Shown piece by piece: positions 35,082 to 58,012 of a stretch of DNA of 64,000 nt. The DNA is from Gemmatimonadota bacterium. Its GTDB lineage: Bacteria > Gemmatimonadota > Gemmatimonadetes > Palauibacterales > Palauibacteraceae. The notes under the pieces were generated by a model. That model made no database searches and had not been told where the DNA came from. It saw only the letters and a list, made by a program, of their open reading frames with translations. The number at the start of each line of letters is the position of its first letter. Positions within the stretch are counted from its first letter, which is position 1. The translations under genes were made by a program, and so were the position numbers. The DNA is taken from the NCBI GenBank assembly GCA_963666735.1, contig OY762926.1:1-64000 (forward strand), in the 5' to 3' direction.

Positions 35082-35279
35082 ATGAAGTACCGGGTGGCGC
35101 TTCAAGAGTCCGAAGAGGGGTTCTCCGTCTGGGTTCCGGGTCTGCCTGGTTGTGCGTCGCAGGGGACGACGGAGGAGGAAGCCCTGGCGAACATCGCGGA
35201 CGCCGTCCGCGAGTACTTGGACGTGGCGGTCGAGAATGCCGCCGGCATGGTCATCCGTGAGATCGAAGTCGCCGTATAG
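35082..35279 (+). CDS. hicB: HicB family antitoxin
   Basis: VPGLPGCASQG.TEEEALANI.DA. Confidence 0.9.
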   Translation: MKYRVALQESEEGFSVWVPGLPGCASQGTTEEEALANIADAVREYLDVAVENAAGMVIREIEVAV

Positions 35280-35282
35280 GCC

Positions 35283-35495
35283 GTGCCGAGGATTCCCGGT
35301 GTCAACCACCTCCGGGCGGTGCGCGCGCTCGAGAAGGCAGGCTTTTGCATCGCTCGCCAAGGAAAGCACATCGTGCTGACCGACGGTGAGCGTATCCTTA
35401 CGGTTCCGCGCAACAATCCGGTCAATGCATTCACGATGGGCCGCATCGTCCAGGACGCTGGTCTGACGGAACGGGAATTCAAGGAACTCCTCTGA
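35283..35495 (+). CDS. hicA: HicA family toxin
   Basis: RALEKAGF...RQGKH, TVPR, I...AGLT. Confidence 0.88.
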   Translation: MPRIPGVNHLRAVRALEKAGFCIARQGKHIVLTDGERILTVPRNNPVNAFTMGRIVQDAGLTEREFKELL

Positions 35496-35509
35496 CGCAG
35501 CCAACCTCT

Positions 35510-35604
35510 CGCACATGAGCAGACCGTTCACCGACCGGTTGCCGGAGGAACTCGACTCCCCCCAGCCGTTTTTTCTTGGGCCCCCGGGGAAAACGACCGT
35601 TGGC
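35510..35604 (+). pseudogene. Degenerate copy of the 5' end of the PLP decarboxylase gene
   Basis: Aligns with 21115-21210 (MSRPFTDRLPEELDSPQPFFLGP vs MSRPSSDRLREELDFLQPYFLGP). Confidence 0.85.
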
Positions 35605-35746
35605 GAAGGCCCGCACCTGCCAAGCCCCGATCGGCCTGTCGGGAGAGATCAAGCAATGGCGTCGCAAGCGTCGGAGTTCGGATTGTTTCGCTGGTGATAT
35701 GGTGTTATGGTGCGTTCATTCGAGAACCTCGACCCCGGACGAAGAC

Positions 35747-35986
35747 ATGCCCCGTCTCACGATCAGCCTGAGTGCTCCCACGCACCGCGCCCTGAAGGAA
35801 GCTTCAGCGCGGCAGGGCCGTTCGATGGGCGCGATCATCGAGGAGAGCCTCGATCTTAGAGGCGTCCGGCCGATCGACACGGCCAGGGACATCGTGGCCC
35901 GAGCCCGCGCGCAGGCCCGGCTGGAAACCGATGAAGCCGCGGCCGTGGCGGTTAGGGAAACGAGACTGCACCGTGAGGGACGGTAG
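35747..35986 (+). CDS. Ribbon-helix-helix (CopG-like) antitoxin
   Basis: MPRLTISLS...HRALKEASARQGRSMGAIIEESL; upstream of a PIN gene. Confidence 0.78.
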   Translation: MPRLTISLSAPTHRALKEASARQGRSMGAIIEESLDLRGVRPIDTARDIVARARAQARLETDEAAAVAVRETRLHREGR

Positions 35987-36030
35987 GCTGATCCGCTGAC
36001 CGACGCCGCGACGGGTGCCGGACGCCGCTG

Positions 36031-36459
36031 ATGACGCCGCCCGTATTCATCGTGGACACGAACGTGATCGTGTCGGCGCTGATCGGGTCCGACTCGAAGG
36101 CTCCCCCGGCGCAGATTCTGGAGGCCATGCTCGGCGGGAGCCTTCTGTACCTCATGTCCGCCGACCTTCTCACCGAGTACGCGTCGGTGTTGCGCCGTCC
36201 CCGCCTCGTTCGGCTCCACGGGCGACCGGAGAAGGAGATCGACCTGTTGCTCGCGGAACTGACGGCGAACGCGATTTGGCGCGACCCGGCCCCGGGCGAC
36301 CCGGCCCCGGATGCCAACGACAACCACCTGTGGGCTCTACTGGCGAGCTGGGCCGGAAGCCGTCCCCTCACGGGTGATCGCCTCCTGGTCGAGAACGCTC
36401 CGGAGGCAGGGCTTGCGGTGACCCCTCGCGAGTGGGTGAACCTCCACAAGAGGCGGTAG
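36031..36459 (+). CDS. PIN domain toxin
   Basis: VDTNVIVSAL, EY..VL.RP, PD.ND, TGD..L. Confidence 0.85.
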   Translation: MTPPVFIVDTNVIVSALIGSDSKAPPAQILEAMLGGSLLYLMSADLLTEYASVLRRPRLVRLHGRPEKEIDLLLAELTANAIWRDPAPGDPAPDANDNHLWALLASWAGSRPLTGDRLLVENAPEAGLAVTPREWVNLHKRR

Positions 36460-36479
36460 GCGACAAGTGGAGATCGCCC

Positions 36480-36790
36480 TTCCAAAAACTCCTTGGGCCG
36501 GAGCGACTGAGCGCGGCTCTCCTACGCGCTGCGCGGACCGAGGGACAACCCGGAGATGGAGAGCTTCTTCGGCCGGTTCAAGGTGGAGAACAGGTCGCTG
36601 ATCCTCGACGCCGGCTCGCTTGAGGAACTCGCGGCCGTCGTCCGGGACCGGATCAACTACTACAATCGGGTGCGCCGTCACTCCTCCTCGGAGACCGGCC
36701 ACCCATGACCATCATCGAGGACCTCTACCGAGAGGGCTGAGCAGCACAATAAACCCGGAGGCCGGGTGTCCACTCTTGGGGGTCACTTCA
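36480..36790 (+). mobile_element. IS3-family remnant (3' end of orfB plus right IR)
   Basis: DNPEMESFFGRFKVE...YYNRVRRHSS integrase-core end; IR ending ...GGGGGTCACTTCA. Confidence 0.87.
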
Positions 36791-37013
36791 CCGGGCGTCG
36801 ACGAGCGGCAGGTCCGCGTGGTGCTCGAGCAGGAAGCGAAGGCGCTGAGAACGGGTTGGTGCGTTGAGGCGGCTGTTCTACCAAGGCACTGCCGCCCGCC
36901 CCGCTTGATCGCCGATGGCGTCGCTGGCAAGCTTGCTGCGCGGGAGTCGGCGCCGCGCCGCCGGATGGAGACGACGATATGGGGGATCAACGATCAACCG
37001 AAGGGCTTTGGGA

Positions 37014-37718
37014 ATGACCGAATCGACCTTCTACGATCAGCTCGGTCGACCTTCCTACGCGGTGGCGGAAGCCGGCCGGCTGGCGGGCCTCACCGCGGGG
37101 AGGGTACGCCGCTGGTTAAGGGGGTACGAGTACAGCTACGGAGACGCCGTGCGGGATCTGCCGCCGGTCCTGCAGGGCAGTGGGACCGAGAGCTCCTACG
37201 CGTCCTTCCTGGACCTTGTGGACCTGCTCTTCGTGAAGCGGTTTCTCGATTACGGAGTGTCACTTCAGAAGGTCCGTCGCGCACTCGACGAGGCTCGCCA
37301 GGTCCTGGGCACGGAACACTTCGCGAGGCAGACGTTCTTCACGGACGGCGGGTCGATCTTTCTCGAACTCCAGGAAGGAGTCCACAGGGGCCGGGGGGAG
37401 GCGATCCTCGAACTGATGTCGGGCGGGCAGTGGGTGATCGCGTCCGTTATTCGGGAACTTGCGCGGCAGATTGACTTCGAGTCGCCCGAGGGGCTGGCCA
37501 GCCGGTGGTATCCGCTCGGGCGGAATAGGCCGGTGGTGCTGGATCCCATGGCGTCGTTCGGTGCGCCCTCGATAGCGGGCCGAGGTGTCAAGACGATCAA
37601 CATCCACGATCTTTTCGTGGCTGAAGACGAAAGCTTGGAGTCTGTCCGCACCTGGTGGGACCTGACGGACGACGAGATCCGAGCGGCAGTGGAATTCGAG
37701 CGTCAGCTGGCGGCATGA
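37014..37718 (+). CDS. HTH + DUF433 antitoxin (VapB45-like)
   Basis: Y.VAEA.RLAG...VRRWL.GY, SFLDL, DP..SFGAP.I.GRGV, EIRAAVEFE. Confidence 0.85.
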   Translation: MTESTFYDQLGRPSYAVAEAGRLAGLTAGRVRRWLRGYEYSYGDAVRDLPPVLQGSGTESSYASFLDLVDLLFVKRFLDYGVSLQKVRRALDEARQVLGTEHFARQTFFTDGGSIFLELQEGVHRGRGEAILELMSGGQWVIASVIRELARQIDFESPEGLASRWYPLGRNRPVVLDPMASFGAPSIAGRGVKTINIHDLFVAEDESLESVRTWWDLTDDEIRAAVEFERQLAA

Positions 37719-38101
37719 GGTTCTTCGTCGATAACAACCTGAGCCCGCAGCTGGCGGCAGGAATGAAGGGATTCGGTGAAGACGTCGTGCACGTCACGGA
37801 GTTCCTTCCACCTGACGTAGACGACACCGAGCTTCTGGCTCGCGTCGGATCGGAAGGTTGGTGTCTGGTGACTCGCGACGACAGAATCCGATACCGGCCG
37901 GCAGAATCGGCAGCGATCAGGGAACACCAGGTAGGGGCGTTCTTCATGGGCGGGAAGAACCTCCGTCGATGTCAGCTAATCCAGCAACTCGTCCGTAACT
38001 GGCCCAGGATGAAGGAACTGGCAGTCAAGACGAGCCCGCCATTCGCGTTTCGGGTCCCGCCGGCGGGTGCCAAGATCAAGCCGATTCCTCTCGGCGACTG
38101 A
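37715..38101 (+). CDS. PIN-like toxin (VapC45/DUF5615-like)
   Basis: MRFFVDNNLS, D.E.L, LVTRDDRIRYRPAE; ATGA overlap. Confidence 0.83.
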   Translation: MRFFVDNNLSPQLAAGMKGFGEDVVHVTEFLPPDVDDTELLARVGSEGWCLVTRDDRIRYRPAESAAIREHQVGAFFMGGKNLRRCQLIQQLVRNWPRMKELAVKTSPPFAFRVPPAGAKIKPIPLGD

Positions 38102-38108
38102 CCCACCC

Positions 38109-38250
38109 ATGACCACCGACCTTACCGAGCGCGGCCTGGAACGGCTCATCTGCGAGGCCCTGACCGGGGACCCCTGCGACCGCCCGATACGGACAAAGGA
38201 CCGTGGCGAGTATTCGAAATCGGCTGAGGGAGAACCGAGTGGAGCCGTGA
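38109..38250 (+). pseudogene. Fused fragments: type I R-subunit (HsdR) N-terminus and HicA C-terminus
   Basis: MTTDLTERGLERLICEALTGDPCD, then degenerate PDTDKG.VASIRN.LREN.VEP* overlapping the hicB start. Confidence 0.55.
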
Positions 38251-38591
38251 GAAACACGATGGAGATCGAAGGCTACCGGGCGATCATCCAGTTCGACCCC
38301 GACATCGAGATGTTCCGGGGCGAGTTCGTCGGCCTGAACGGCGGCGCGGACTTCTACGCCCGCGACGTCCCCGGTCTCAGGAGGGAGGGTGCGGCATCGC
38401 TCAAGGTGTTTCTCCAGATGTGCGAGGAGGACGGCGTCGAGCCCGCACGCCCGTACTCGGGACAGTTCAACCTGCGCATCCCGTCCGAGTTGCACGCGAA
38501 CATCGCCGCCGCCGCGGCCGCCGAAGGGAAGAGCTTGAATCAGTGGATCACCGAGACGCTCCGCGATCGCGTCGCAGCCGGGATGGCCTGA
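38247..38591 (+). CDS. hicB: HicB family antitoxin with RHH domain, orphan copy 1
   Basis: GY.A.IQFDPDIEMFRGEF.GLNGGADFYA, YSGQFNLRIPSELH, SLNQW. Confidence 0.88.
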   Translation: MRNTMEIEGYRAIIQFDPDIEMFRGEFVGLNGGADFYARDVPGLRREGAASLKVFLQMCEEDGVEPARPYSGQFNLRIPSELHANIAAAAAAEGKSLNQWITETLRDRVAAGMA

Positions 38592-38636
38592 CGGCGAACC
38601 GACGCGTCGACTTCCACATCAGTTCCAATGCGGCCG

Positions 38637-38784
38637 TCCGATGCCCGAACCGGTGCTTCGGGAAGCGCTCCCGAATGCGGTGGTGCACGCTTCGGACGCG
38701 ACCTCGGAGGGAAGAGGTCGGCACCAAGTCGGCACCAAGTCGGCACCAAGTGGCGACTCTACGGAAGTCCTTGTCGGCGCGACC
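38637..38784 (+). pseudogene. Heavily deleted copy of the ATP-binding protein gene at 46.9-47.7 kb
   Basis: 38637-38688 matches 46999-47050; 38691-38784 matches 47386-47479, including three 11-bp repeats. Confidence 0.85.
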
Positions 38785-38871
38785 GCAGCACCACCTCCGA
38801 TTTCTGCCGCGCACTCCAGCGCTTCGGCAGGCCCTCGGCCTCCGTCGGCTTCTCCTCGTCCCATCCTCCAT
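38783..38871 (-). mobile_element. Transposase N-terminal fragment
   Basis: Minus strand reads DEEKPTEAEGLPKRWSARQKSEVVLR, like the HTH start of IS3-type OrfA. Confidence 0.5.
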
Positions 38872-38943
38872 CTCTCTGCCTTGCCCTACTCTAATCTCTT
38901 GCTCCTCTCGTGTCTCGCGTGTGTTGGCAGAGAGGGGGCGGGC

Positions 38944-40068
38944 ATGCGACTCTCCGCTGCGGATCCTCCCAGCGCCACGATCGACGGAACACATAAGCAC
39001 CTGCTCGTTGCGGATTGGACGACGCTTCTGAACGGGATGGAGGCGTGTCTGGAGGGCCCCGAACCGGGCCTCGCGGACGTGCGCCAACTCATGGGGCTGG
39101 TGCGGTTCGCGGAGACGAAAGCGCCAAAGGCCCCGCACGCCGGCAAGGCACTCGTCAACCAGGTTACTGCTATCGGAAAAAACTCGGACTGGATACACAA
39201 GGACGGCCTGAAGGCAACACCGAAATCCTACGGCTACGGGCGCTACGTGTGGTTGGGTCGGCGCGCCCGGCTCGGGGTATGGGTGGGGTTCAACACCGAC
39301 CTCCACGAGGAGTTCAAGGCGACGCCCCTGTGGGTCCGAGTCAAGAGGTGGAAGGCGCCATACGACTCGGGCTGGACGGAGCGGACCGTACCAATACTGA
39401 AGGAGTGCGTGTCGCCGTACGTCAAGCAGGTCGGCCAGGTGCTTTGGGTGGGGGTCGTGCCGGACGAGCCCCCGGATCCAAACAGCTACGCAGAGGAGTT
39501 GGAACGGATCGCCGAGATCGTCGACGAGGCTGCCGAGTCGCCCCTCTCGCCTGCCAGCGTACTCACGGAAGTCGGCCGGCGCTACGACCAGCCCGTGATG
39601 AACAACGTGCACCGCGCCGAGTACGTCGAGGCGCTCGTGGCTCTCGCGCTCCGGGACAGCGGATGGACGCGCAAGGCACCGTGGGGGGCCTGGCACTTCG
39701 AGAACGAATCCGGCGTGCGGCTCAAGCTCAAGCACTCCGCGGCGGTGCAGTCGTGGGGGGGCGGCGGAGCCCAGGACTCCCCGCGTTTCGACATTGCCCC
39801 CGGAAAGGGCTACTGGGACGATGAAGACGGACGGTGGGTGAAGCACTACGGTCGCCACGCCGACGTCTACGTGTTCGCCTGGCACGGGGGCACCGGCGAG
39901 AGGACGGACCAACGGGATCCGGCGAGGTGGGAGTTCCATGTGATCGCGGAACGCGATCTACCGGAGCAGAAGTCGATTGGTCTCCCTGCGATCCGAGCCT
40001 CGACGTCGCGGTGCCGCATCGAGGAGCTTGCGGCTGTGATCGACGAGATCTCCGGGGCGGTCCGCTGA
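38944..40068 (+). CDS. Hypothetical protein with C-terminal restriction-endonuclease-like domain
   Basis: RAEYVEALVALAL, SAAVQSW, FDIAP, RHADVYVFAWH, QRDP..WEF.V; start uncertain. Confidence 0.6.
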   Translation: MRLSAADPPSATIDGTHKHLLVADWTTLLNGMEACLEGPEPGLADVRQLMGLVRFAETKAPKAPHAGKALVNQVTAIGKNSDWIHKDGLKATPKSYGYGRYVWLGRRARLGVWVGFNTDLHEEFKATPLWVRVKRWKAPYDSGWTERTVPILKECVSPYVKQVGQVLWVGVVPDEPPDPNSYAEELERIAEIVDEAAESPLSPASVLTEVGRRYDQPVMNNVHRAEYVEALVALALRDSGWTRKAPWGAWHFENESGVRLKLKHSAAVQSWGGGGAQDSPRFDIAPGKGYWDDEDGRWVKHYGRHADVYVFAWHGGTGERTDQRDPARWEFHVIAERDLPEQKSIGLPAIRASTSRCRIEELAAVIDEISGAVR

Positions 40069-40153
40069 GCGCTCCGCGCGAACCGCGCGTCACGGTCGAC
40101 AGGGCGGCCAGGGATCTTCAGGACACGCCTGAGCGCAGCGGCGTCCGGTCGAG

Positions 40154-40411
40154 TCAGGCCGCGTCGTGCTGCTTGATCCAGTCGCGCAGGACGTCATCGA
40201 TCCGGGTCTGCCAACCGCGCCCTCCAGCCCGAAAATGATCGATGACCTCCGGGGACAGCCGGATGGTGGTGGAGACCTTCGGCCGCGCCTTCCGGGGTCG
40301 GCCCCGCCGCACGGGCGCCTTGGCGAATTTCTCCGGCCAGCCGTCCTTCGAGAGGTCGGGTGCCGTATCCGGATCAAAACCTCGGACCGTAGAGCCGTCG
40401 TTCCCGTTCAT
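40154..40411 (-). CDS. brnA: BrnA antitoxin
   Basis: RGRP, TIRLSPEVIDHFRA.G.GWQTRI..VL. Confidence 0.9.
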   Translation of the reverse strand: MNGNDGSTVRGFDPDTAPDLSKDGWPEKFAKAPVRRGRPRKARPKVSTTIRLSPEVIDHFRAGGRGWQTRIDDVLRDWIKQHDAA

Positions 40412-40643
40412 TGGCCTTCCTCATGCTGATGACCCTGCATGCATCGCCGCGCTGCGTCCAGACGAGCACGATCATCTTGTCGTCCAGACAACCGATCGTG
40501 ATGAAGCGAGCCTCGCGGTATTCCTGCCGATCATCCTCGACGGTCAGCGTCGCGCCGGCGAACACCTCCACCGCCCGCGCCATGTCCAGGCCTCGAGCCC
40601 TGATCGTCTCCGCACGCTTTGCGTCGTCGAACTCGATTCGCAT
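40374..40643 (-). CDS. brnT: BrnT toxin
   Basis: EFDDAK, D.RQEY.E.RFITIG, VWT.RG..RVISMRKAN.RE. Confidence 0.9.
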   Translation of the reverse strand: MRIEFDDAKRAETIRARGLDMARAVEVFAGATLTVEDDRQEYREARFITIGCLDDKMIVLVWTQRGDACRVISMRKANERERRLYGPRF

Positions 40644-40766: not shown

Positions 40767-41516
40767 TCATGGGAGGTGCTCGAGGCTTCCCGCCTGCGGT
40801 AGGGCGATCCAGCCCTCCTCCTTCGCCAACTCTTCATCGCCGGGCGGGATCGGTTCGCAGCGGCTGAGCGCGGCCGCCCGAGCGACGAGGGCCGCGACCA
40901 CCGCATCGAGTAGGTCATCCGAGGCAGTACACTGAGCCCAGTCCTCCTCGGAAAGGGTGAACCAGTCGGCGATGCGCTCGGCGAGATCACTGGCGAGCCG
41001 GGCGCGAACCGCGGCTCCCCTGGCGCGCTTGTAGCCGCGCGAGGGGAAGCCCCATACGTGGAGGGCGGCCGCGGGGTAGACTTCGACGAAGCGGCCGCCG
41101 CCGCTCCGGTCGATGGATTCGCCGGTGGCCGCCGTCTCGGCGAGCAGGCGGACGGCTCGGATGGCGGGCACCGCGATCAGGTCCGTCGAGACGCTGAGCG
41201 GCCATCGACCCAGCCTCTCCCTCACGAATGCATCGGTTCGCCGGAACCGAAGCTGCGGGACTTCGGCGGCAGGCCAGACCGTCCCTGCCGACCAGGCGGC
41301 AACGGCTCGGGTGAAGCGTGCGGGCCAGCCGAAGGGGGCATCGATACCGATCTTGTCCGCGCGCCCGAACAACTCATGCAGGTCGGCGTCCGTCGCACCC
41401 AGCGACAGCGACTCGACGCGTGCCGATCCGCGATGCCACCGAATCAGACAGGTAGCCGTCCGCTTCGGCTGCGATGCGAGATCGACCCCGAGCGTGAACG
41501 ACGCGGGTTCAGTCAT
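40767..41516 (-). CDS. DUF429 domain protein (predicted RNase H-like nuclease)
   Basis: LGVDLA, GIDAPFGWP, R.TD, EVYPAA, DDLLDA, EGWI.LP. Confidence 0.85.
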   Translation of the reverse strand: MTEPASFTLGVDLASQPKRTATCLIRWHRGSARVESLSLGATDADLHELFGRADKIGIDAPFGWPARFTRAVAAWSAGTVWPAAEVPQLRFRRTDAFVRERLGRWPLSVSTDLIAVPAIRAVRLLAETAATGESIDRSGGGRFVEVYPAAALHVWGFPSRGYKRARGAAVRARLASDLAERIADWFTLSEEDWAQCTASDDLLDAVVAALVARAAALSRCEPIPPGDEELAKEEGWIALPQAGSLEHLP

Positions 41517-42502
41517 CGTCCGGCGGCGGGAAGTGCGCCTTCAGGAAGCGTTCGATCTGGTCGAGTCGTTTGTCGAGTTCCTCGCCTCCCAAGTGACCTC
41601 CTTCATTGTACCTTCCGAGCGCGGCGGTGGCCTCGTCTTCGTCAATGTGAGAGAACCACTCGGCGAAACACTTTGGCCCCACCCAGATGCTCAATCCTCC
41701 GCCGCTCGCGCCGGTTCCGGGGCTCGCGTACATCAGGAACCGACGGCGGTCTGACGGCGGCGCGATTCTCACCGAACTCCGCTGCGGTTGCACCGGCAGA
41801 CCGGCCCGCTCGGACATCTCGACGAAGCGATCGAACTGCTCGCTCACACCCAGGTCAACGGCCCACGCACGGATTGCGTCAACCGTCAACCGGTGACCTG
41901 GGCGGGGGAGTCTGGCGGGTTCGTCAACCACCTCCCGAATCAGCAACTGCGGGCCGCCGTCCAGTTCGAACACCTCGAAGCTGACGACCTCGATCGGGAG
42001 GCCGAAACGTCCCAGAAACTCGCTCGTGCGCTCCAATCCCGGGTGAATGCCAGCGCCGACGAGCAGCAGGGCGATCTCCCGATCGTCCCCGTCGTCGGCC
42101 AGAAGTTCCCGCACTCTTGGAGACAGCGTCTTCGGGTCCCCGACCCTGTTGAAGCCACCTTCGAGCTTCCGAAAGAGTTCATCGGCATCGAGACGGGCGA
42201 GTGACGCGGCGTAGTAGATGGCCTGTCCCAGCGCGCCCGAATCGATCATCCCCGGCTTCACTTCGATCACCACCCAGCGATCCTGCGAGTCGAATCGCCA
42301 ACAGATCGAGCCGTCCATCATCGATCGATACCTGGCAGCCGACCAGCATCAATCCCTCGCCGATCAGTGTCACATCGTTCACGATCCAGTCTTCGAGCTG
42401 CCGCTCGAGTTGGATGTGGGAACGCCCGACCTTCTGCGGTTCCCGCTTCGCTGAGCTGTCGTCGTTTCGCGTTTCCATCGTCCAGACTGCCAGTCTCGTC
42501 AC
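41509..42502 (-). pseudogene. NucS/EndoMS-like PD-(D/E)XK endonuclease, +1 frameshift near 42293
   Basis: LERQLEDWI...GRLDLLAI | DSQDRWVVIEVK...GQAIYYA split across two frames. Confidence 0.8.
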
Positions 42503-44804
42503 GTTTCGATACCCCGAAGCTGCTCCCCTCCGAGGCGTCGATAGCGATCCAACGCGGTTCGCCTCATGCCTGCGGGGAGGTGTTTGGTGACCATTCCGAA
42601 TGCGTTGTCGAGTCCCCACGCGTATCCGAGATCGATGGTCGCCTCTCCGGACGGTTCGATCTCCCTCCGAGCGGGAATCTTGACCCTGTTTGCCAGCTCC
42701 ACGACTTCATGGATCGTGGATTCGTCCGAGAGCACGATCGGTGCGCAGCACTCGATGGCTCGTCCCATCATGAGCGTCGCCAAGCGCGCCGAATCGGCGG
42801 GAAGCCGGTCCCACCGGTTCCAGATGATGGGGTAGGCGTTCATGCGCCTGGCGCGGTCGAGCAGTCGAAAGCAGGCGGCCGCATCCAGGATCCGCTCGTT
42901 CGGCACGACTCCCACGTAGACCGACCCGTGGTCGGTCTCGACGCGGAAGCCGGCATCGGTGCGGTCGCGGCCGGAACAATCGAGAACAGCGGGCTGGCCG
43001 TCGCGCAACGCAATACGGACGGGCTTCAAAGGCGTCGCGTTCCGCGGGCGTCCGGGCTTGTCGGCGGACGGGATCTTCGACCAGTCGAGCGGCTCTCCGA
43101 CGGCGGCCATGTCGAGGTCGAGCACGTAGATGCTGCCGGCTTCCGTGCACTCGGAGAGAGGCTGTGAGACTCCCCAGCCCGCCGGCCTGGCCGAGAGCTC
43201 GGTGCCGTCGGGAGCGAACGCGTAGGGGTGGGTTCTCTTCCTGGTCGCGTCGTAATGGAGCGTGCAGAGCGCGAAGAAACGGTTCTCCACCGCCCGCAAC
43301 CGGAGAATGGACGACCACTTGATGCCGGTCACGTTGTCGAAGCTCGGATTGACCCAGATGTGTGCGCCGTTCCGCGCGAGATAACGGGGAAGGAGCCCCA
43401 GGTAATGGTCGTGACAGATCGTCGCTCCCACCCTGACGCCGCCCAACCGGAACGTCGGAAGCTGGGCGGCGCCTCCCAGTCCGGCCGCTCGAACGCCACG
43501 GCGTCGGCCGTCGAGTGTTTCGCGTACACCCGGGAACGAGAGCCGTCGGGGTCGAACCGAAGGAGCACCTGCCAGTCGCGGCCGGTGGAGTCGTTGGTTG
43601 TGTCGATCGCGCCCACGAGCAGCGAGGCGTCCAGGTCTGCGGCGAGCTTCGAGAGCGATTCGCTGCGTTCACGGTCGGACGCCGAGACGTAGCCCTCGGG
43701 GAAGAGCACGAAGTCGATGGCTTCGTCGGCGAAGGAATCGGCGGTGGGCACGTCCGGTTGCTGGGCCCCGGGTCCGCTGGGCGGCACACCGTTCGAGGAC
43801 TTCTGCGCTACCGGGGGGAACGCCATCGCCACGCGCGCAGTGGAAGCCGATCGTCCGGTCGCCGGGGAGATTCCCACGCCAGTTCGACTGGTCCGAGAAC
43901 CTCCGTCGTGGATCAGATCCGAGAAGCGCGCCCGGTCCTCCCGGCTATCCGGATCGAGCGAGCACCAGACCTGGTCGCGGGCGTAGAGCCGCACCGTCGG
44001 CTGGAAGCCCTGCGTCGGCGGGACGAGGTCCCTCAGCGTGTCGTACCAGGCGCGTTGTTCGTCGCGGAACGCCGGGTCGTTGTCCTTCGCGTCGTGCCGT
44101 TCGCAGAACTCCATCCAGCGCCGTGCGGAGAACCCGAGCGTATACGTATCTGCGTAGGCGGAGAGGGCGAGCTTCCGCGGTCTCGTGAAGTGCTGGCTCT
44201 CGTCGAACTCGACGATGAATCCCGGGTCGGGAACCCAGTAGTCGCAGCCCGCGAGTACGTTGCTCCGGACGAACGTGTCGATGCCGTGTCCGCGATAGCT
44301 CTCCAACCGCTCCGCCACGTCTTGTAGGATGGGCTCGAGCGGGGTTCCCGCGTAGGCTTCGGGGCGCGTCTGCCATCCGAATTGAAGATTGAGCGCGCAC
44401 GCGCCGTAGATGCGTTCCAGGAGCTCGGCGACCCGGCCCTTGCATGCGCGACACCGCTCGGAGTGGCGCCCGGTGGAAATCGGAGGCGTCCTCTCAACCG
44501 GTGGAGGGGGTGCGGGTACGACGTGACTGTCCCGGACGCTGCCACGACAGCCGCACTCGGTGACAGCGAAGCCCCGGCGCCTAAGGAACCCATTGGACTC
44601 CTGCCCTCCGGAGAATCGATCCGAGGCCAGGAACTCGCCCGTGGCGATCTTATGAGCCAGCGCGATCGAGTACTTCGGCGGCAGATGCCTGCGCTCCGCG
44701 ACCAGGCAGTAGCCTCGGCTCCTCCTGCCCGGTGGTACGCCGCCACGGACGATGCGCCGGATGGCCTCTTCGATGTGCGCCCTGCCGATGCGCCTCGGGA
44801 TCAC
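42499..44804 (-). pseudogene. Multidomain protein: putative DNA-binding N-domain + Vsr-like nuclease + nitrilase/CN-hydrolase; frameshift near 43465
   Basis: IP..I...HI..AI/PPKY/FSGG.E.N.FL...GF; D...P..IVEFDESQHF/RDEQRAWYDTLRD; nitrilase triad FPEGY, YAKH, TICHD. Confidence 0.7.
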
Positions 44805-46152: not shown

Positions 46153-46374
46153 CAGGGGCGGCATCCCCAGCACGACCTTTCTTCGGAGGGGCCGTGACTT
46201 GCCGCGGGTTACTCTCGGTTGATCCGGTCCTCCGCGTTCCGCCCTCCGACCGTGGGATGTCCTCGCCCCATCTCCGCCACGTCCGCCGCCTCGCGCGTAG
46301 GGGTAACGGCACATCCGTCTTGTGGCGCAAGCATCGAAGACACGAAATTGGCTGAGGGAGAACGGAGTGGAGCC

Positions 46375-46719
46375 GTGAGAAACACGATGGAGATCGGCGG
46401 CTACCGGGCGATCATCCAGTTCGATCCCGACATCGAGATGTTCCGGGGCGAGTTCGTCGGCCTGAACGGCGGCGCGGACTTCTACGCCCGCGACGTTTCC
46501 GGTCTCCGGAGGGAGGGCGCGACATCGCTCAGGGTGTTTCTCGAGATGTGCGAGGAGGACGGCGCCGAGCCCGGACGCCCGTACTCGGGGAGGTTCAACC
46601 TGCGCATCCCGTCCGAACTGCACGCGAACGTCGCCGCCGCCGCGGCCGCCGAAGGGAAGAGCCTGAACCAGTGGATCACCGACACGCTCGGCGACCGCGT
46701 CGCACCTGGGCTGGTTTGA
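46375..46719 (+). CDS. hicB: HicB family antitoxin with RHH domain, orphan copy 2
   Basis: Near-identical to 38247-38591; 46343-46760 aligns with 38215-38632. Confidence 0.88.
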   Translation: MRNTMEIGGYRAIIQFDPDIEMFRGEFVGLNGGADFYARDVSGLRREGATSLRVFLEMCEEDGAEPGRPYSGRFNLRIPSELHANVAAAAAAEGKSLNQWITDTLGDRVAPGLV

Positions 46720-47795: not shown

Positions 47796-48851
47796 CTATC
47801 CTGCGACCGCGCTGAGCATCTCACGGTGGATGTCCTGCCAGCGTTGGTTCAGATCCACCGTGCGCGCTTGGATGCGAAACCCTTCGAGCCGTACGTCGAC
47901 CCGAAATGGGGTCTCCACCTGCGGGTACAGCAGGATCCCTTCGTGCCTCGGCCCGTCCGGTCGCGTGGCCTCGCGGTTTCTCAGGTAGGCGAGAAGCTGG
48001 TAAAGGTTCGGGGAATGCAGTTTTCCGGGGCCGCCCCCCCAACCCGACAACGCGCTGGCGTAGTACTTCGTGTCCAGGATGATCCACCGCTCAGCTGATT
48101 CGAGGATCACGTCGGCTTCCATGATCGGGATTCGTTGCCGATCCGCGTCGGTAGCCCAACCCCGTTCCGCCCAGCGGATGCGGCGTCCCGTCGGATTGAC
48201 ACGGTATTCGCGTTGCTCCCTCTCGTAGAATCCGGTTACGAACTGCTCGAACAGTCTCCACATCGTGGCTTCATCGCGCCGGAAGTCGCGGAAGCTGGAG
48301 CGGCCGGTCTTCTCGTCCACGATGGAACTCTCGTGCAGCAGCCTGCACACCGAGAGCAGGAAGTGGTAGAGGCGACGGCTACCACCGAGCTGGACTCGCC
48401 CGAACGTGCTCCGCTTCAGCCGCAGGTGTGATATCCCATCGAGCCTGCTGTAGGCCGACCGAACCTCGGCTCGGACTCCGCGGTGGAGCCCGGTCTCGCG
48501 GGCCAGCAGATGCCTCAGCGAGGTCCGAAGGATGCGGTTCGGCAGGATGTCCGCCGACAATTCCTCGAAATCGCAGGCCGCCCGGCCGCGGGCCCGCAGC
48601 GCGCGCTTCGCCGTGTCGCTGACCGCCAGCTTCCCGCGGATCCCCGCGAGGTCCTCGCGCCGTTCCACGTACCCACGATCGATGCCGCGCCGAAAGAGTC
48701 GGTTGACGCCGGTGGCCAGCACCTTGCCCAGCAGGTCGTGCACCGACGAGAGGCCGTCCAGCGTGGCCAGCCGCTTGGTGTCGCGCTCCTGCGCGTGTCC
48801 CCACGCGTAGCAGAGGAGGTAGTAGACGTTGAGGATCGGGATGGCTTTCAA
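47796..48851 (-). CDS. mcrC: McrC restriction nuclease subunit
   Basis: IPILNVYYLLCYAW, IRGKL, D...NRIL, LFEQFV, AD.....IILDTKYY, NLYQLLAY; TTGA overlap with mcrB. Confidence 0.92.
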   Translation of the reverse strand: MKAIPILNVYYLLCYAWGHAQERDTKRLATLDGLSSVHDLLGKVLATGVNRLFRRGIDRGYVERREDLAGIRGKLAVSDTAKRALRARGRAACDFEELSADILPNRILRTSLRHLLARETGLHRGVRAEVRSAYSRLDGISHLRLKRSTFGRVQLGGSRRLYHFLLSVCRLLHESSIVDEKTGRSSFRDFRRDEATMWRLFEQFVTGFYEREQREYRVNPTGRRIRWAERGWATDADRQRIPIMEADVILESAERWIILDTKYYASALSGWGGGPGKLHSPNLYQLLAYLRNREATRPDGPRHEGILLYPQVETPFRVDVRLEGFRIQARTVDLNQRWQDIHREMLSAVAG

Positions 48852-51025
48852 GTCGCCCCGTTGCCCTTGAGCCTTGCTACGGTCGCCTCGACATCGGTGG
48901 GTGAATCGAACCAGTACTCCCGGAGAAGCGGCTCGATCTGGGTGTCTACCACGTGCTCGTACCACATGTCGGAGGTCTCGTCGCCCTCCCCGGGAACGAA
49001 GTAGCTGTGACCGACCTCGAACCCGCGGCCGAGTTCGTTGTCCTTTCTGATCTTCTCGTTCAGTTCGCCCATCCGCTCGGAAATCCGGCGAATCAGGTCC
49101 GGCTCTGTGCCCTTCCTCTTGAGGTATCCGTCGAACTCGTCCGTCCCGTACGCCGGCTCGAGCGTCTCGAACGCGAACCGGCGCCGCAGCGCGTAGTCGA
49201 CCAGGGCCAGCGACCGGTCGGCCGTATTCATCATGCCCAGGATGTGTACGTTATCGGGCACGTGGAACCGATCGTCCGAATAGGTGAGCGCCAAGGCATA
49301 CTTGTCGCTGCGCTTGTCCGCCTCGATGAGCATGAGAAGCTCACCGAAGATCCGCGACAGATTGCCACGATTGATCTCATCGATGATGAACACGTGGGGT
49401 GTGCCCGGTTTCTCCCGGGCCCGTTCGCAGAAGCGATGGAACACACCGTCCTTGAGGTCGAATCCACCAGTCTTGGTAGGCCTGAACCCCTGGACGAAGT
49501 CTTCGTAGGCGTACGACTGATGGAACTGCACCATCTCGATGGGACCGTCATCCTCGTAGCCGATCACGCACCACGCGAGCCGTCGCGCGACGAACGTCTT
49601 CCCGGTGCCGGGCGGCCCTTGGAGGATGAGGTTCTTGCGAGTCTTGAGCGAGGTCACCAACCGCTCGAGATGCTCCCGGGAAATGAAGAGATCCTCATGA
49701 GCGTGATCGATCGTGAATTCTCGGCTCGCATATCCTTCGCGGTCCATGAGCGAAAACGCGAGGCGCACCCAAGGCATGTGGGGTGTGAAATCGGTAAGCC
49801 GCTTGGACGAGATACGACGCCTGTGTGCGGGAATCGAGACGGAGCGCTCGCAGGGCCGCCACGCGACCCTTCTGCTGTGAGAAAGATCCCACGAGGCCTT
49901 TGGGTCGTGCCGGTAGTCCCCCCGAACCTCGCCCCAGCCGAGCACCCGCTTCTTGCCCTCAACGGCGATGACGACATCGCCCACCTTCATTTCGTTTCCG
50001 AAGTTGGCGAGGAAGAACGCTCGCTGGGTGGGATTCTCTCCATGTCCGCGACTCGTCAAGTCATCCTGAATGCTCTTCTGGCCTCTCCGAAGATCACCGA
50101 CCTCGCCCCAGCCGATGGTGGCTATCCCGCGCTCCAGCCAGGTGGACCACATGTCCGGTCGACCGGCACCCACGTTCATGAGCCAAACATGCGCTGCGTC
50201 GCTGAAGCGATCCCTGAACCAGGCCTCTACGTCAGCCTTCTTCCAGAGTTCACTTACTGGAGGCAGGTAGAAGTGGAATCCTTCGCCGTACTCCGGTTCA
50301 AGGCGTCGGCGGATCGTAAGTATGGCCCTGTCGACGGAAACTCGATCACCAGTATCGACCGGGGAGCCTTCGTGCAGGTAAGTGATGATCTCACTCTTTC
50401 CCGTCCCGGTAACGATCGGCTCGAACTCGTCCGGGAAGAGCAGAAACAGCAATGCGTGACGGAACATGCGATTCTCGGAGAACTCGGTGCCGTCGATCCA
50501 TGACGCGAAGTCCCACGGTTGGCTCAGGCGCTCTCGTCTTACGCCGGGCTCCAGGGAGAACCACGCAAGCATGGACGTCACGAAGAAGCGGTATTCCTTC
50601 CATCTGAGCGCGTGGTAGGCCGCGCCGACGTTGACAGTGCCGGCTCTCAGCACCGTATCGTCCAGGAGGGCATGATCCTTGGGGAAGCTCTGCCCGGACC
50701 ACTCCCAGACCTCCGCCATGCCGCTTCGCTTCGTGCCCGGCGCCATCCCGCTTGAGCGCACGATCAAGAGATAGACCCACATCATCTCAACCCAAAGGCA
50801 CTTGGCAGCCGGCGAGCCCGGTCCCAGCTGGCGCTTGAGCTTCGTCAGAAAAGAATCCGACGATTCGTCGTCCAGATTCTCAACGTACAACGTCCGCAAC
50901 TCGTCGAAGTTGGACCGAGTCCACAAATCCCGCTCGGTGAACAGAGATCCTCCATCCAGCAGGCACCGCTGTTTCCACTCCTTTGCGGCATTCAGCAGGG
51001 TCTCGGCATCCCTGAATCGATTCAC
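48848..51025 (-). CDS. mcrB: McrB family GTPase
   Basis: KNLILQGPPGTGKT, VQFHQSYAYEDFVQG, IIDEINRGN, MNTADRS, ALRRRF, PLLREYW; start uncertain (GTG 51025). Confidence 0.92.
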   Translation of the reverse strand: MNRFRDAETLLNAAKEWKQRCLLDGGSLFTERDLWTRSNFDELRTLYVENLDDESSDSFLTKLKRQLGPGSPAAKCLWVEMMWVYLLIVRSSGMAPGTKRSGMAEVWEWSGQSFPKDHALLDDTVLRAGTVNVGAAYHALRWKEYRFFVTSMLAWFSLEPGVRRERLSQPWDFASWIDGTEFSENRMFRHALLFLLFPDEFEPIVTGTGKSEIITYLHEGSPVDTGDRVSVDRAILTIRRRLEPEYGEGFHFYLPPVSELWKKADVEAWFRDRFSDAAHVWLMNVGAGRPDMWSTWLERGIATIGWGEVGDLRRGQKSIQDDLTSRGHGENPTQRAFFLANFGNEMKVGDVVIAVEGKKRVLGWGEVRGDYRHDPKASWDLSHSRRVAWRPCERSVSIPAHRRRISSKRLTDFTPHMPWVRLAFSLMDREGYASREFTIDHAHEDLFISREHLERLVTSLKTRKNLILQGPPGTGKTFVARRLAWCVIGYEDDGPIEMVQFHQSYAYEDFVQGFRPTKTGGFDLKDGVFHRFCERAREKPGTPHVFIIDEINRGNLSRIFGELLMLIEADKRSDKYALALTYSDDRFHVPDNVHILGMMNTADRSLALVDYALRRRFAFETLEPAYGTDEFDGYLKRKGTEPDLIRRISERMGELNEKIRKDNELGRGFEVGHSYFVPGEGDETSDMWYEHVVDTQIEPLLREYWFDSPTDVEATVARLKGNGAT

Positions 51026-51653
51026 GGTGAGTTCCGTTGCTTGTGTAACCTTGGGTTCTCGGGGACGGGCAACATGCGTGGTCCTCTGTGGCTCCTGCAA
51101 TCCGCAGGATCCGTTGGGTGGACGCGACGTCCAGGTCTGAGTGCTGAGCCCAGCGGTCGTCGCCGCGAAAGATCTCAAGATGGCTGGCCGTGGGCTCGTC
51201 GCGTTGCTGATCGATGCGGGCTACGGTAGCGTATCGGCTGGTTGTTCCGACCGGGTCCTCAGCACTCAATGCACATTAGGCGGGAGCCACTCAAGCCCAT
51301 GTCACAACAGTTCGCAGAGGCGATCGAAGATCTCGCGAAGGGTATCGGCGCCGGCAGCTTTCGAAGCGAGGCCGAGATCAGCCAGGGTGTGATAAAGCGT
51401 GTCCTGCATGAACTGGGATGGCCGGTCTTCAACGTCCAGGTCGTCGCTCCGGAATTCAAGATCGGTACGAGGAAGGTCGACTACGCCCTCTGCCATCCGG
51501 CGGGAAAGCCGTCCGTCCTCGTGGAGGTCAAGGATTTGGGGAAGGCCGATAACCGTGGGCAGAAGCAGCTCTTACCCCGTTTTAGTGGACAGGTGAAAGT
51601 GGTGGTTTCCTCCATTCTCGCCACCTCGCGGGAGAGGGCCGCGGCCCGGGGGG

Positions 51654-52530
51654 TCACGCCGCCTCTCCTTTCTCGCGCGCCTCGAAGCTGGCGGGCGACT
51701 CGTAGCCGAGGCTCGAGTGCCGCCGGCGCGGGTTGTACCAGCCCTCGATGAACCGGAACACCCCCCGGCGGGCCTCGCCGGGCGTCCGGAACGAGCGCCG
51801 CCAGATCAGTTCGCACTCCAGCGTGGCGAAGAACGACTCGCACATGGCGTTGTCGTAAGCGTCGCCCACCGAGCCCATCGAGGGCCTGACCCCGGCCCTC
51901 CGGCAGCGGCCGCCGAAGGCGTAGGACGTGTACTGGCTGCCTTGGTCGCTGTGGTGGATCACCCCGTCGGGGCGCCGCTGCGCCAGCGCCATGTCGAAGG
52001 CATCCAGCACCAGGGACGTCCTCAGGTGCGTCGCCATCGACCAGCCCACGATGCGGCGGCTCCAGGCGTCGAGCACGACGGCCAGATAGAGGAAGCCCGC
52101 CCAGGTCGGCACGTACGTGATGTCGGCCACCCAGAGTTCGTCGGGTCCGGAGGCCGAGAAGTCTCGGTCCACGAGATCCGGCGCGGGCCTGGACTTCGCG
52201 GCCCGCTTCGTCGTACTGCCCTTGCGGCGCCGGCTCACCCCTTCGATCTCCGCCGCCCGCATCAGCCGCGCCACCCGGCCCACACCCGCCTCGCGGCCCC
52301 GCGCCTTGAGTTCCGCATGGACCCGCGGCGCCCCGTACGTCCCCCCGCTCATGGCGTGGATCTCGACGATCTCCGCACTGAGCGCCTCGTTCTCCCGCGC
52401 CCGCCGAGACGGCTCCCGCGTCCGCCACGCATAGTACCCGCTCGGGGAGAGACCCAGCAGGCGGCACATCACGCGCACGGGATACATGGCCTGGTGATCG
52501 CTCACGAACCGGAACCCCCCCGGGGGATCG
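51654..52530 (-). CDS. IS3 transposase OrfB (DDE), probably by -1 frameshift near the C5G7 run at ~52515-52526
   Basis: YGAPRV, WVADITY, D.WSRRIVGW, HHSDQGSQY, DNAMCESFF, YN..RRHSSLGY.SP. Confidence 0.93.
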
Positions 52531-52810
52531 ATCCGCTCTCCTTGGCGAACCAGGCCGTGGCTTTTGCCAATATGTCGCGCTCGATCTTCACCCGGCGAAG
52601 CTCGCGCTTCAGTTCCCGGACTTCCTTGCGCTCGACCGTCGTCAGACCGTCGGTGCGACGCCCCTCGTCCAGGTCGGCCCGCTCCACCCAGCGCCGGATC
52701 GCCGTCGCCGAGGGCTCGAACTCGCGAGCCAGCCGGTCCGCGCTCCGTCCCGCACGGACCAGTTCCACCATCCGCGCCTTGTACTCCGGCGCGTATCTCC
52801 GTCCCGACAT
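52502..52810 (-). CDS. IS3 transposase OrfA
   Basis: RYAPEYK..MVELVR.G, HTH, ELRRVK.ERDILAKA..WFA. Confidence 0.92.
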   Translation of the reverse strand: MSGRRYAPEYKARMVELVRAGRSADRLAREFEPSATAIRRWVERADLDEGRRTDGLTTVERKEVRELKRELRRVKIERDILAKATAWFAKESGSIPRGGSGS

Positions 52811-53804
52811 GCGACACCTCCTCGTTGTGACCAACGCTCAAAGGTGTCCACCAAATCGGGGTAACTCCAAGCAGCTCTTCGAGTACTGCTTTCACCAGGG
52901 CGTTCCGATTGCGGTGCTCACGGACGGACGCGAGTGGAGTTTCTTCCTTCCTTCCGGCCAGGGAAGCTACGACGAGAGACGATTCGCGCATCTCGACCTC
53001 ATCGACGATGACTCCAGTTACTCAGCCGAGACCTGCGAGAAGTACTTGAACTTTGACCGCGTCAAGTCGGGTGAGGCGCGGCGACGAGCGGAGCGTGACT
53101 ACGAGGCGGCTCGGCGCCAGAAGGAAGTCGCGTCGAACTACGCGTCGGTGTGGGGGCGACTTCTCGCCGGACCCGACCCGTTGCTGCTGGATCTGTTCTC
53201 GGAGGAAGTCGGAAACGAAACGGGCGTTCGACCGGAACCGGAGAGCGCCGCGAGATTCATCCGTCGTCAGGCTCGGGCCGGAGTGGCGTCGCAGGACAAG
53301 TCGAAGCGGAAGAGAACGACGCGACGGGAGGTGGCGCCCATACCTGCCCCAGGAGGATCGGACGACCCGCCCTCGCTTACGTTCCGCGGAGAGATCGAGA
53401 CGTTCAAGACCGGCGCGGAAGTGCTGGTAGCGGTCTTCGAGAAGCTCGCCTCTCTGGATCCGGATTTCTGCCGGCGGTACTCGGAACAGCACCGGGGGAA
53501 AGTGCGGCGATACGTCGCCAAGAGCCGAGCTCACCTCTACCCAGGGAGCCCTCGTCCTGCGAGCGCCTCCCACCGTCTTCCCGGGGGTTGGTACCTCGCC
53601 ACGCACTGCAGCAACCCCGGCAAAGTGACCCGTATCATGAAGGCGTGTGAAGTAGCTGGGCTCAAGTTCGGGCGCGACGTGATCGTCCATATCCCGGTCG
53701 GACCGCGGAAGGGAAGAACTCCTTAACGCGTACGCCCGTGATACTATAGCGAGTGCGTCTCCGCCGACCGACGCCACGCCGTCAGCGGCGAGCGGCATCC
53801 GGCT

Positions 53805-57700: not shown

Positions 57701-57987
57701 CCGATCTGGAGTCTGCGCACGTTCTGACGCGCGATCTGGGCGTTGGAGCAGATGTAGACGATGTCGATCTGCTCGACGCGATCGGGCCCGTCCCACAGGT
57801 GATCGAGCGCCTTCGCGATCACTCCGCGCGCCACGAGCGTCTTCCCGAGACCGACCTCGTCGGCCACCAGGAACCGCCGCGTCGAGTCCGGGGCTGTGTA
57901 GAGCCGCTCGAAGGCGTAGTCCACGGTGTCGCGCTGGAAGCCCTTGAGGCCGCCGAGGACGGTTTCGATGTCGGGCCGCTCGCCCAT
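54733..57987 (-). CDS. SF2 helicase of a DUF6361-PLD-helicase defence triad (Azaca-like)
   Basis: FLVADEVGLGKT, LDEFQRF, LLSATPY, FNSPFWPFVLASTSVGQEGLDFH, LEQREGRVHRY. Confidence 0.88.
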   Translation of the reverse strand: MGERPDIETVLGGLKGFQRDTVDYAFERLYTAPDSTRRFLVADEVGLGKTLVARGVIAKALDHLWDGPDRVEQIDIVYICSNAQIARQNVRRLQIGDGKFVRAARLTLLPQVIHNLKANRVNYIALTPGTSFDLKSSMGIRQERVLLYHMLQRVWPNSRAGPKNLFQGSVRNTGHFRWELKQFKHWHQIDPGIADAFAHRLREGEGLQARYEDLCQRFRRSRPQIPGDDRWRQITFIGQLRSMLAEVCVDALEPDLVILDEFQRFKDLLDGEHATAKLAKQLFTYSDDTSDVRLLLLSATPYKMYTLHHERAEDDHYRDFLRTIEFLDLGLKESGDLRRFLDDYRQAMYRIESGTKALERIKGEIEAHLRRVMSRTERLRVSGDAQGMMRQVPSTGLELTADDVGDFLALQKIGREVRQPQVLEYWKSAPYLLSFMDDYKLKTQVVASLDASSENGLAELLTDSGRAFLSWEDVEAYARLDPANARLRSLLGWMERGEAWKLLWLPPALPYYSESGPASGPWKAAREQQLSKRLIFSTWAVVPKAVASVVSYEVERRLFQRFDDSIRNTAEERKKRRGLLRFAFSNERLTGMPVLGLLYPSPTLVALGDPVPVSGAEATLAGAVARARTQLEPLLDKLTKPYLDGEREDESWYWVAPILLDLQRHGESTKEWFDRWDLPKIWNGAQEDDEEGSRWADHVREARKLVEAGVEAALRGSLELGRPPEDLAEALATRAVAGPATSALRALTRASGPGTASAPAARDAAARIAWSFRTLFNLPEAMALIRGGRRDHETTPYWRQVVDYCAAGNLQAVLDEYLHTLRDLEGLFAAEDEEAWEKLAGAVTEALSLRTGAPRVDEIRPADDTVRIHHRRLRNHFAMRFGAQESDDGKTGAREGQVRQAFNSPFWPFVLASTSVGQEGLDFHAYCHSVMHWNLPSNPVDLEQREGRVHRYKGHAVRKNVATKHGDEVLAGDSKDVWHELFEAAREQSANGDGLVPYWLFPLEGGAYIERHVPALPLSRDASQLEALKRSLAVYRMVFGQPRQGDLMTFLLERRSIETLRKVEPLLRIDLSPAPAPTVHPGAV

Positions 57988-58012
57988 CCCCCGTCGCTTC
58001 ATGGGTTGACAG

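Follow-up and report, generated by a model that had tools for sequence, protein, structure and literature searches.

We describe here a gene that joins a nuclease domain to nitrilase-fold domains, found on the minus strand of a 64,000-nucleotide stretch of DNA (positions 1 to 64,000 of contig OY762926.1, hereafter the window) from a Gemmatimonadota bacterium with a single-contig genome of 3.98 Mb. The gene (gene 1) is followed by a NucS-like gene and a DUF429 gene (genes 2 and 3, Table 1). The copy in the window is dead; the family to which it belongs is alive, mobile and modular. Tentatively, we read the intact fusion as a single-gene, horizontally moving nuclease directed against foreign DNA, with a nitrilase-fold tail that would act as its gate by responding to a base or metabolite that bears a C-N group. 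The literature searched, judged mostly by titles and the openings of abstracts, describes no fusion of nuclease and nitrilase, in agreement with an original prediction made from the sequence of the window, which knew of no described defence system with this architecture. The supplements of large defence screens may list the family.

The original prediction had read gene 1 as a domain like those of McrA/McrB-type enzymes, a Vsr-like nuclease and a C-N hydrolase with an E-K-C triad. All the motifs it quoted (PPKY/FSGG, IVEFDESQHF, RDEQRAWYD, FPEGY, YAKH and TICHD) are present in the sequence, and structure and profile matches of an intact homologue from the same genus, P0007, bear out the fusion. 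Modelled with AlphaFold (38-row alignment; mean predicted local distance difference test score, pLDDT, of 85.3), the 768 aa of P0007 form four domains: a head, a Vsr-type nuclease, a nitrilase and a degenerate second nitrilase. The head (residues 4-85) matches that of ScoMcrA (5zmm; Z 7.9, root-mean-square deviation, rmsd, 2.1, 64 aligned, 28% identity), with a profile E value of 0.0014, and PF26345 also matches homologues. It is present in 91 of the 120 listed proteins with a tail like that of P0007 (type A, see below), and some family members have no head. In the part of the ScoMcrA report available, the function of this domain is not known (PMC6224610).

The nuclease domain (residues 113-297) matches Vsr (1cw0) over residues 117-302 with a middling score (Z 6.4, rmsd 3.8, 115 aligned). 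A weak profile match to AbaSI (E 0.023) places D188, E199, D201, E202 and H205 on AbaSI D61, E72, D74, E75 and H78, with no residue aligned to AbaSI K23. These five residues and a CxxCK motif are invariant in both the 38-row and the 42-row alignment, and the mutants D61A, E75A and H78A abolished the activity of AbaSI in the text available (PMC4081097). Matches of the CxxC stretch to copper chaperones were dismissed as motif noise.

The third domain (residues 320-575) is matched by PF00795 above its cut-off (E 1.8e-12), by Foldseek (E 7.5e-14) and by the nitrilase-superfamily structure 3p8k (Z 23.8, rmsd 3.2, 236 aligned). E370, K429 and C464 are invariant in 38 of 38 rows and the second glutamate, E439, is nearly so. 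Judged by sequence and model, the type A module thus has a nitrilase fold with a complete E-K-E-C site, and it is predicted to be a C-N hydrolase. Fold and site are shared with Nit2, N-carbamoylputrescine amidohydrolase and aliphatic amidases; unlike these, the type A module is fused to a nuclease and followed by a degenerate second copy, with at most 21% identity in fold alignments, and it reached the cut-off of no nitrilase subfamily. That second copy (residues about 585-760), which the original prediction overlooked, was folded separately with a pLDDT of 88.8. The top 13 rows of its VIA search are all members of the nitrilase superfamily (best Z 9.2, rmsd 3.4, 119 aligned) and Foldseek matched it to nitrilases at E 2.2e-4; hhalign did not detect a second nitrilase domain, and Atlas gave only a lead, under 0.9. 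It might, as a guess, fill the dimer face of the nitrilase. A search for longer forms of the fusion returned one protein, a result that carries little weight.

Homologues were collected in several ways. A genome scan confirmed 197 stretches and a metagenome scan 348, many of the latter on short contigs, and 80 of each were kept (160 loci in total). The nitrilase half as query recovered 423 proteins among 8000 scored candidates, and the nuclease profile gave 778 representatives at 50% identity. Among the 150 best of these 778, 46 stop less than 80 aa beyond the nuclease, being fragments or stand-alone genes, and the other 104 continue into a tail of at least 80 aa. The 104 tails fall into types B (28), E (22), C (20), A (14, plus 3 broken ones placed by hand) and F (4), with 13 others. 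The same nuclease thus bears at least four exchangeable tails, namely the type A nitrilase, two probable nitrilase-fold variants in which the first catalytic glutamate is missing (B and C), and an unassigned domain (E). The exchange is exemplified by P0157 (B), P0158 (E) and P0171 (C), whose nucleases are 76-82% identical and whose modules give no BLAST match to each other. The three proteins group together at 99 support in a tree of 89 rows, in which 41 of 86 branches are open; like the others used here, it is a quick tree. In approximately unbiased tests on 27 of the 89 rows, none of the types A, B, C and E was accepted as a single clade (p 0.001 or lower), with rows chosen after the tree had been seen, so that these tests are post hoc. 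Tails A and B are dedicated to this nuclease. All 120 listed long type B proteins carry it, as do 109 of the 120 listed type A proteins, the remaining 11 starting inside or just ahead of the nitrilase. An A, B or C module is fused or adjacent in 145 of the 160 loci, and in four of them (L078, L080, L169 and L170) the type B module is a separate adjacent gene.

Tail B is marked by the motifs TCGGF, GKSYP, GCHD and HPH, and tail C by FP[AG]G, [RK]KF.P and CYD. In both, the lysine and cysteine of the nitrilase site are kept and the first glutamate is replaced by G or A. A comparison of tail C with A by hhalign gave 84-91% with deeper alignments and 13% with shallow ones (FPGG aligned to FPEG, CYD to CHD), and one of C with NAD+ synthetase an E value of 0.092. 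B against C gave 98.5%, to which shared tails may contribute, and 0.3% with shallow alignments; tail B has no match in the PDB. Judged from these motifs and profiles, a nitrilase fold is likely for tail C and less sure for tail B. Tail E, found in P0158, P0152, P0179, P0238 and 18 more representatives, has a conserved HE ... Y-A-x-C ... GP pattern, and no Pfam, PADLOC or PDB match was obtained among the members scanned. Three Gemmatimonadota loci (L060, L061 and L062) carry the same nuclease with yet another unassigned tail; L062 has an additional weak UDG-like domain (E 0.046), and L060 adjoins an ABC-3C system.

In the window, compared with the same-genus locus L006, gene 1 has one base missing at 43469/43470 and gene 2 has one base extra at about 42294. 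One frameshift in each of the two genes had been predicted, with decay and mis-sequencing left as the two possible causes. Both sites are spanned without a gap by contigs from four of four runs, belonging to four studies, which rules out sequencing or assembly error as the cause of both frameshifts; the check rests on contigs, in which rare variants are dropped, and run X1 may be the source sample. Programmed frameshifting was also considered, and neither site is a homopolymer run. Because these contigs cover both sites, genes 1 and 2 of the window are true pseudogenes, decaying rather than mis-sequenced. The frame of gene 1 now ends at a stop codon at 43329-43331, giving 491 aa in which the nuclease is kept and the nitrilase cysteine is lost, being out of frame.

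Intact copies of the fusion are under purifying selection. The median ratio of non-synonymous to synonymous substitution rates (dN/dS) among intact copies is 0.30 for the head, 0.20 for the nuclease, 0.22 for the nitrilase and 0.26 for the second nitrilase, and the intact fusion is found in many sponge symbionts. The phyla whose records most often hold type A are Acidobacteriota, Pseudomonadota, Latescibacterota and Gemmatimonadota. In a tree of 38 rows, L006 is placed among Acidobacteriota at 99 support, a pattern that bins or paralogues can mimic. Within the genus, the fusion is intact in two of 35 other genomes and remnants occur in two more; G014 has an extra short remnant, and the protein of the congener G017 is identical to that of L006. 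When type A loci were read by hand, stops, frameshifts or insertions were seen to disrupt 14 of 56 (58 loci were listed, of which two were removed as type C, and nine flagged rows were re-read as intact, seven being natural terminal stops and two divergent). Phage records and viral contigs gave no match to the family. Plasmids yielded nine matches to generic nitrilases and nothing for type B, and BFVD one generic CN hydrolase. No conserved mobile-element ends were seen; upstream DNA is common to close loci only.

The neighbourhood of type A was surveyed in 32 de-duplicated loci through the four nearest called genes (128 genes; Pfam scan, simple gene caller). The control comprised 94 genes at 20 random loci of one genome, G000; each gene was labelled manually according to the name of its family, and the loci lack independence from one another. 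Strictly defined defence genes adjoin 10 of 32 loci against 2 of 20 (one-sided p 0.07), or 9 of 32 if the NucS gene of L006, which is below the Pfam cut-off, is left out. With toxin-antitoxin genes included the counts are 15 of 32 against 2 of 20 (p 0.007), and with mobile genes added as well, 22 of 32 against 3 of 20 (p 0.0002). The expected enrichment in defence islands is borderline for strict defence genes; the lower p values arise once toxin-antitoxin and mobile genes are counted. Restriction-modification, toxin-antitoxin, Tiamat-like and integrase genes adjoin a minority of type B and C loci. Methyltransferases are among the four nearest genes in two of the 32 loci; the fusion has no cognate methyltransferase, as in type IV restriction, and no neighbour gene is conserved across phyla. 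The protein contains no reverse transcriptase, and the only ones among the 128 neighbours are pieces from a group II intron at L034. Taken together, these observations support defence-like dynamics: the fusion is patchy in distribution, often broken, and near toxin-antitoxin, insertion sequence (IS) and defence genes.

With its constant nuclease that has a complete catalytic set, its type IV head and a C-terminal module that varies, the family has the layout of modification-dependent restriction enzymes. In PvuRts1I and AbaSI, as far as the text available goes, an N-terminal Vsr-like nuclease with a D...ExDExxHF motif is likewise followed by a C-terminal module (PMC4081097). The fusion differs from these enzymes in that both of its C-terminal domains have a nitrilase fold (type A), or another domain stands there, in place of an SRA-like reader of 5-hydroxymethylcytosine; it also adds a ScoMcrA head and a CxxC motif, its sequence match to AbaSI is the weak one given above, and its dependence on modified DNA is a prediction. 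ScoMcrA itself, a type IV enzyme built as head-SBD-SRA-HNH, shares the small N-terminal head (5zmm), whereas the fusion has no SBD, SRA or HNH domain and its remaining length is taken up by Vsr and nitrilase folds. A further analogy may be drawn to END nucleases, in which PLD or NucS nucleases are combined with an inactive endonuclease III as sensor; the text available makes no mention of a nitrilase (PMC12191111). Like AbaSI, they exemplify the layout to which we liken the fusion.

By analogy with PvuRts1I and AbaSI, the conserved N-terminal Vsr-type domain would cut, and the exchangeable C-terminal module would set the trigger. In type A, the pocket with its cysteine and lysine would engage a ligand that bears a C-N group and comes from the invader. 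The simplest candidate is a base of hypermodified phage DNA decorated with an amide, acyl or nitrile group, and the other is a small metabolite; the nitrilase may hydrolyse this ligand. Engagement of the ligand, or oligomerisation favoured by nitrilase folds, would then bring nuclease domains together and lead to cutting.

Several points weigh against this reading. Nitrilase pockets are small and buried, and therefore the reading of a base in DNA would require that the base be flipped out or that the nucleotide be free. The match to AbaSI is weak, and the Vsr fold score is one that common folds also reach. At E 0.1, P0007 is matched by none of the PADLOC models. The enrichment of strict defence neighbours is borderline and measured against a one-genome control, many type B and C loci lie among housekeeping genes, and for tails B and C a nitrilase fold is read from motifs and weak profiles. 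Finally, the nitrilase of DRT1, which is known in defence, is an effector and not a sensor according to the part of the report available (PMC13275509).

A more specific and clearly less probable version of the mechanism is that the fusions form a new class of modification-dependent restriction enzymes, in which a hypermodified phage base would be read through attack of the nitrilase cysteine on its amide, acyl or nitrile group. Type A would hydrolyse the group before cutting, types B and C, in which the first glutamate is missing, would trap it covalently, and either event would license the Vsr-type nuclease.

The precedent of DRT1 also leads to an alternative that we consider unlikely to about the same degree, namely abortive infection with two effectors. 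Here the nitrilase would be toxic by draining an essential amide metabolite, as proposed for DRT1, and the nuclease domain would serve as a DNA sensor or second effector. In the available parts of the reports, a nitrilase acts as effector or is a required component in DRT1 and DRT11 (PMC13275509, PMC13436386). The conservation of E370, K429 and C464 in all 38 type A rows fits such a role, and frequent pseudogenisation suits a costly gene. It is nevertheless the nuclease that stays constant with its full catalytic set, and the tail that is swapped, even for a non-nitrilase domain; tails B and C do not have the first glutamate, and P0007 has no match to the PADLOC models of DRT nitrilases.

We regard it as improbable that the fusion repairs DNA adducts, with the nitrilase stripping acyl or carbamoyl groups and the Vsr-like domain nicking at the lesion. 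Vsr, the best fold match, is a repair nickase, many loci lie among housekeeping genes, and the gene is under purifying selection. A repair role is difficult to reconcile with the intact gene in only two of 35 congeners, a quarter of type A loci broken, no neighbour conserved across phyla, a type IV restriction head and swapped tails. Slightly less probable still is a selfish mobile endonuclease of the Vsr-like homing kind that carries the hydrolase as a passenger. The homing enzyme I-Bth0305I is indeed a fold neighbour (3r3p, Z 5.7), the gene seems to have moved between phyla, and its insertion sites vary, but distant copies share no target site or flanking DNA, none was found in phage records or viral contigs, and the tail is under purifying selection.

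The original prediction itself, of a three-gene, modification-dependent system acting on a cyano- or amide-bearing 7-deazaguanine, is the least probable of the readings. The overlapping frames on which it was built are real: genes 1 and 2 share GTGA at 42499-42502, and genes 2 and 3 share ATGACTGA at 41509-41516. So are the assignments of gene 2 as NucS-like (NucS_C E 1.6e-7; PADLOC PDC-S11 E 1.4e-27) and gene 3 as DUF429 (E 1.7e-31; PADLOC PDC-S44 E 5.5e-13), each a match to a single-gene PADLOC candidate, which speaks against a joint system. In L046, L010 and G010 the gene directly behind the fusion is DUF429, of which L007, L009, L011 and L014 keep the first 25-50 bases after the fusion stop; a NucS-like gene follows the fusion in L006, in G014 (a remnant) and in L026 (another subfamily). 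All three in a row were found in none of the 80 genome loci and none of the 80 metagenome loci, and DUF429 occurs away from the fusion within the genus, in G022 and G023, which have no fusion, and about 10 kb from it in G017. Non-co-occurrence in other genomes, which the prediction had itself named as counting against it, is thus what is seen for genes 2 and 3, which are loose companions of the fusion and not fixed parts. In the simplest history, an older fusion-DUF429 pair would have arisen in one sub-clade, the NucS-like gene would have been inserted between them in this genus, and either would have been readily lost. L006 also holds, downstream of its intact NucS gene, a second short remnant of the junction between NucS end and DUF429 start (14718-14847), and the full DUF429 of that genome lies about 10 kb away.

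As for the deazaguanine substrate, folE/PTPS or queD genes adjoin type B fusions in L175 (3-6049), L183 (5330-5482) and L193 (1452-1682). They are duplicated or truncated there and look like insertion sites, possibly an insertion hotspot. Motifs for QueC, QueE and QueF had no match across 1.82 Mb of flanking DNA; in G000 those for QueC and QueF each found one gene and that for QueE none. Such a substrate finds no support in these results, nor in the two sister tails that have no catalytic glutamate. PF01702 gave one match in G000, and no second TGT-like (DpdA) gene was seen there. At L099 (807-3994; G000:C1 ~2633800-2636990) a NotI-family endonuclease, QueF and AIPR stand side by side, which may be chance or a deazaguanine link.

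Table 1. Features of the fusion locus in the window, with the evidence for each
Feature	Position	Strand	Basis
Gene 1: head-nuclease-nitrilase-degenerate nitrilase fusion, pseudogene here	42499..44804	-	intact same-genus homologue P0007 of 768 aa
ScoMcrA-like head domain, PF26345 ScoMcrA_N	44550..44795	-	5zmm structure match, profile
Vsr/AbaSI-type nuclease domain	43914..44468	-	1cw0 fold, AbaSI alignment, invariant columns
Nitrilase-superfamily C-N hydrolase	43081..43847	-	PF00795, Foldseek, VIA; frameshift splits K from C
Frameshift 1	43469..43470	-	shorter by one base relative to L006
Degenerate, shortened second nitrilase-fold domain, C-terminal	42526..43038	-	separate model, VIA, Foldseek
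Gene 2: NucS-like PD-(D/E)xK, PADLOC PDC-S11-like, pseudogene	41509..42502	-	frameshift ~42294
Gene 3: DUF429, PADLOC PDC-S44-like, intact	40767..41516	-	profile matches

The island that holds the fusion of the window also contains McrBC, ZacABC, a DruE-like piece and BrnT/BrnA. A McrB-like and McrC-like pair occupies 47796-51178 (minus strand), its McrB having a long N-terminal region with a PDC-S02-like stretch, and PADLOC matches to ZacC, ZacB and ZacA follow one another at 54733-61175 (minus strand), succeeded by a DruE3-like piece at 62232-63953. Small toxin-antitoxin-like genes (BrnT/BrnA, and a PIN_10 gene with an HTH/DUF433 gene) lie at 35082-40643 and 46219-46719, and near-copies of one small open reading frame at 38109-38588 and 46387-46716. 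A transposase region at about 51654-52810, which we take from its motifs to be IS3-like, seems to interrupt a plus-strand gene (51263-53726). The promoter scan gave 0 sites, and a search for conserved non-coding RNA gave no Rfam match within 30000-64000 of the window. Elsewhere in the family, a Tiamat/sacsin-like gene stands directly after the type B form in L078 (2108-3136) and L175 (2643-5180).

In the literature searched, the only nitrilase-bearing anti-phage proteins are the class 3 defence-associated reverse transcriptases, or DRTs (DRT1 and UG5/DRT11). As far as the available parts of the reports go, the nitrilase of DRT1 has a catalytic tetrad and a substrate that is still open (PMC13275509), and reverse transcriptase plus nitrilase suffice in DRT11 (PMC13436386). 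The fusion differs in that the partner of its nitrilase is a nuclease and not a reverse transcriptase, and P0007 has no match to the PADLOC models of reverse transcriptase-nitrilase proteins. In the available portions of three further sources, nitrilases are listed among effectors (10.64898/2026.09.30.754977), a nitrilase appears only with a reverse transcriptase (10.1101/2024.10.26.620412), and Vsr-like effectors are described with no nitrilase (PMC11090510). No literature was found on DUF7255, nor on nitrilase and PvuRts1I together.

Nitrilases in anti-phage defence thus occur only with reverse transcriptases in the literature as far as it was accessible, and the fusion would be a second, independent and simpler setting. 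The family offers one gene, intact homologues, and catalytic as well as Glu-less variants on nearly the same nuclease, and brings unannotated domains (tails B, C and E) within reach of test. Were the tail to recognise a modified base, type IV restriction would gain a new reader class, with possible tools for amide- or nitrile-modified DNA. Should the less probable covalent mechanism be true, the swappable tails would amount to a collection of readers, each for a modification of phage bases, among them modifications still to be discovered.

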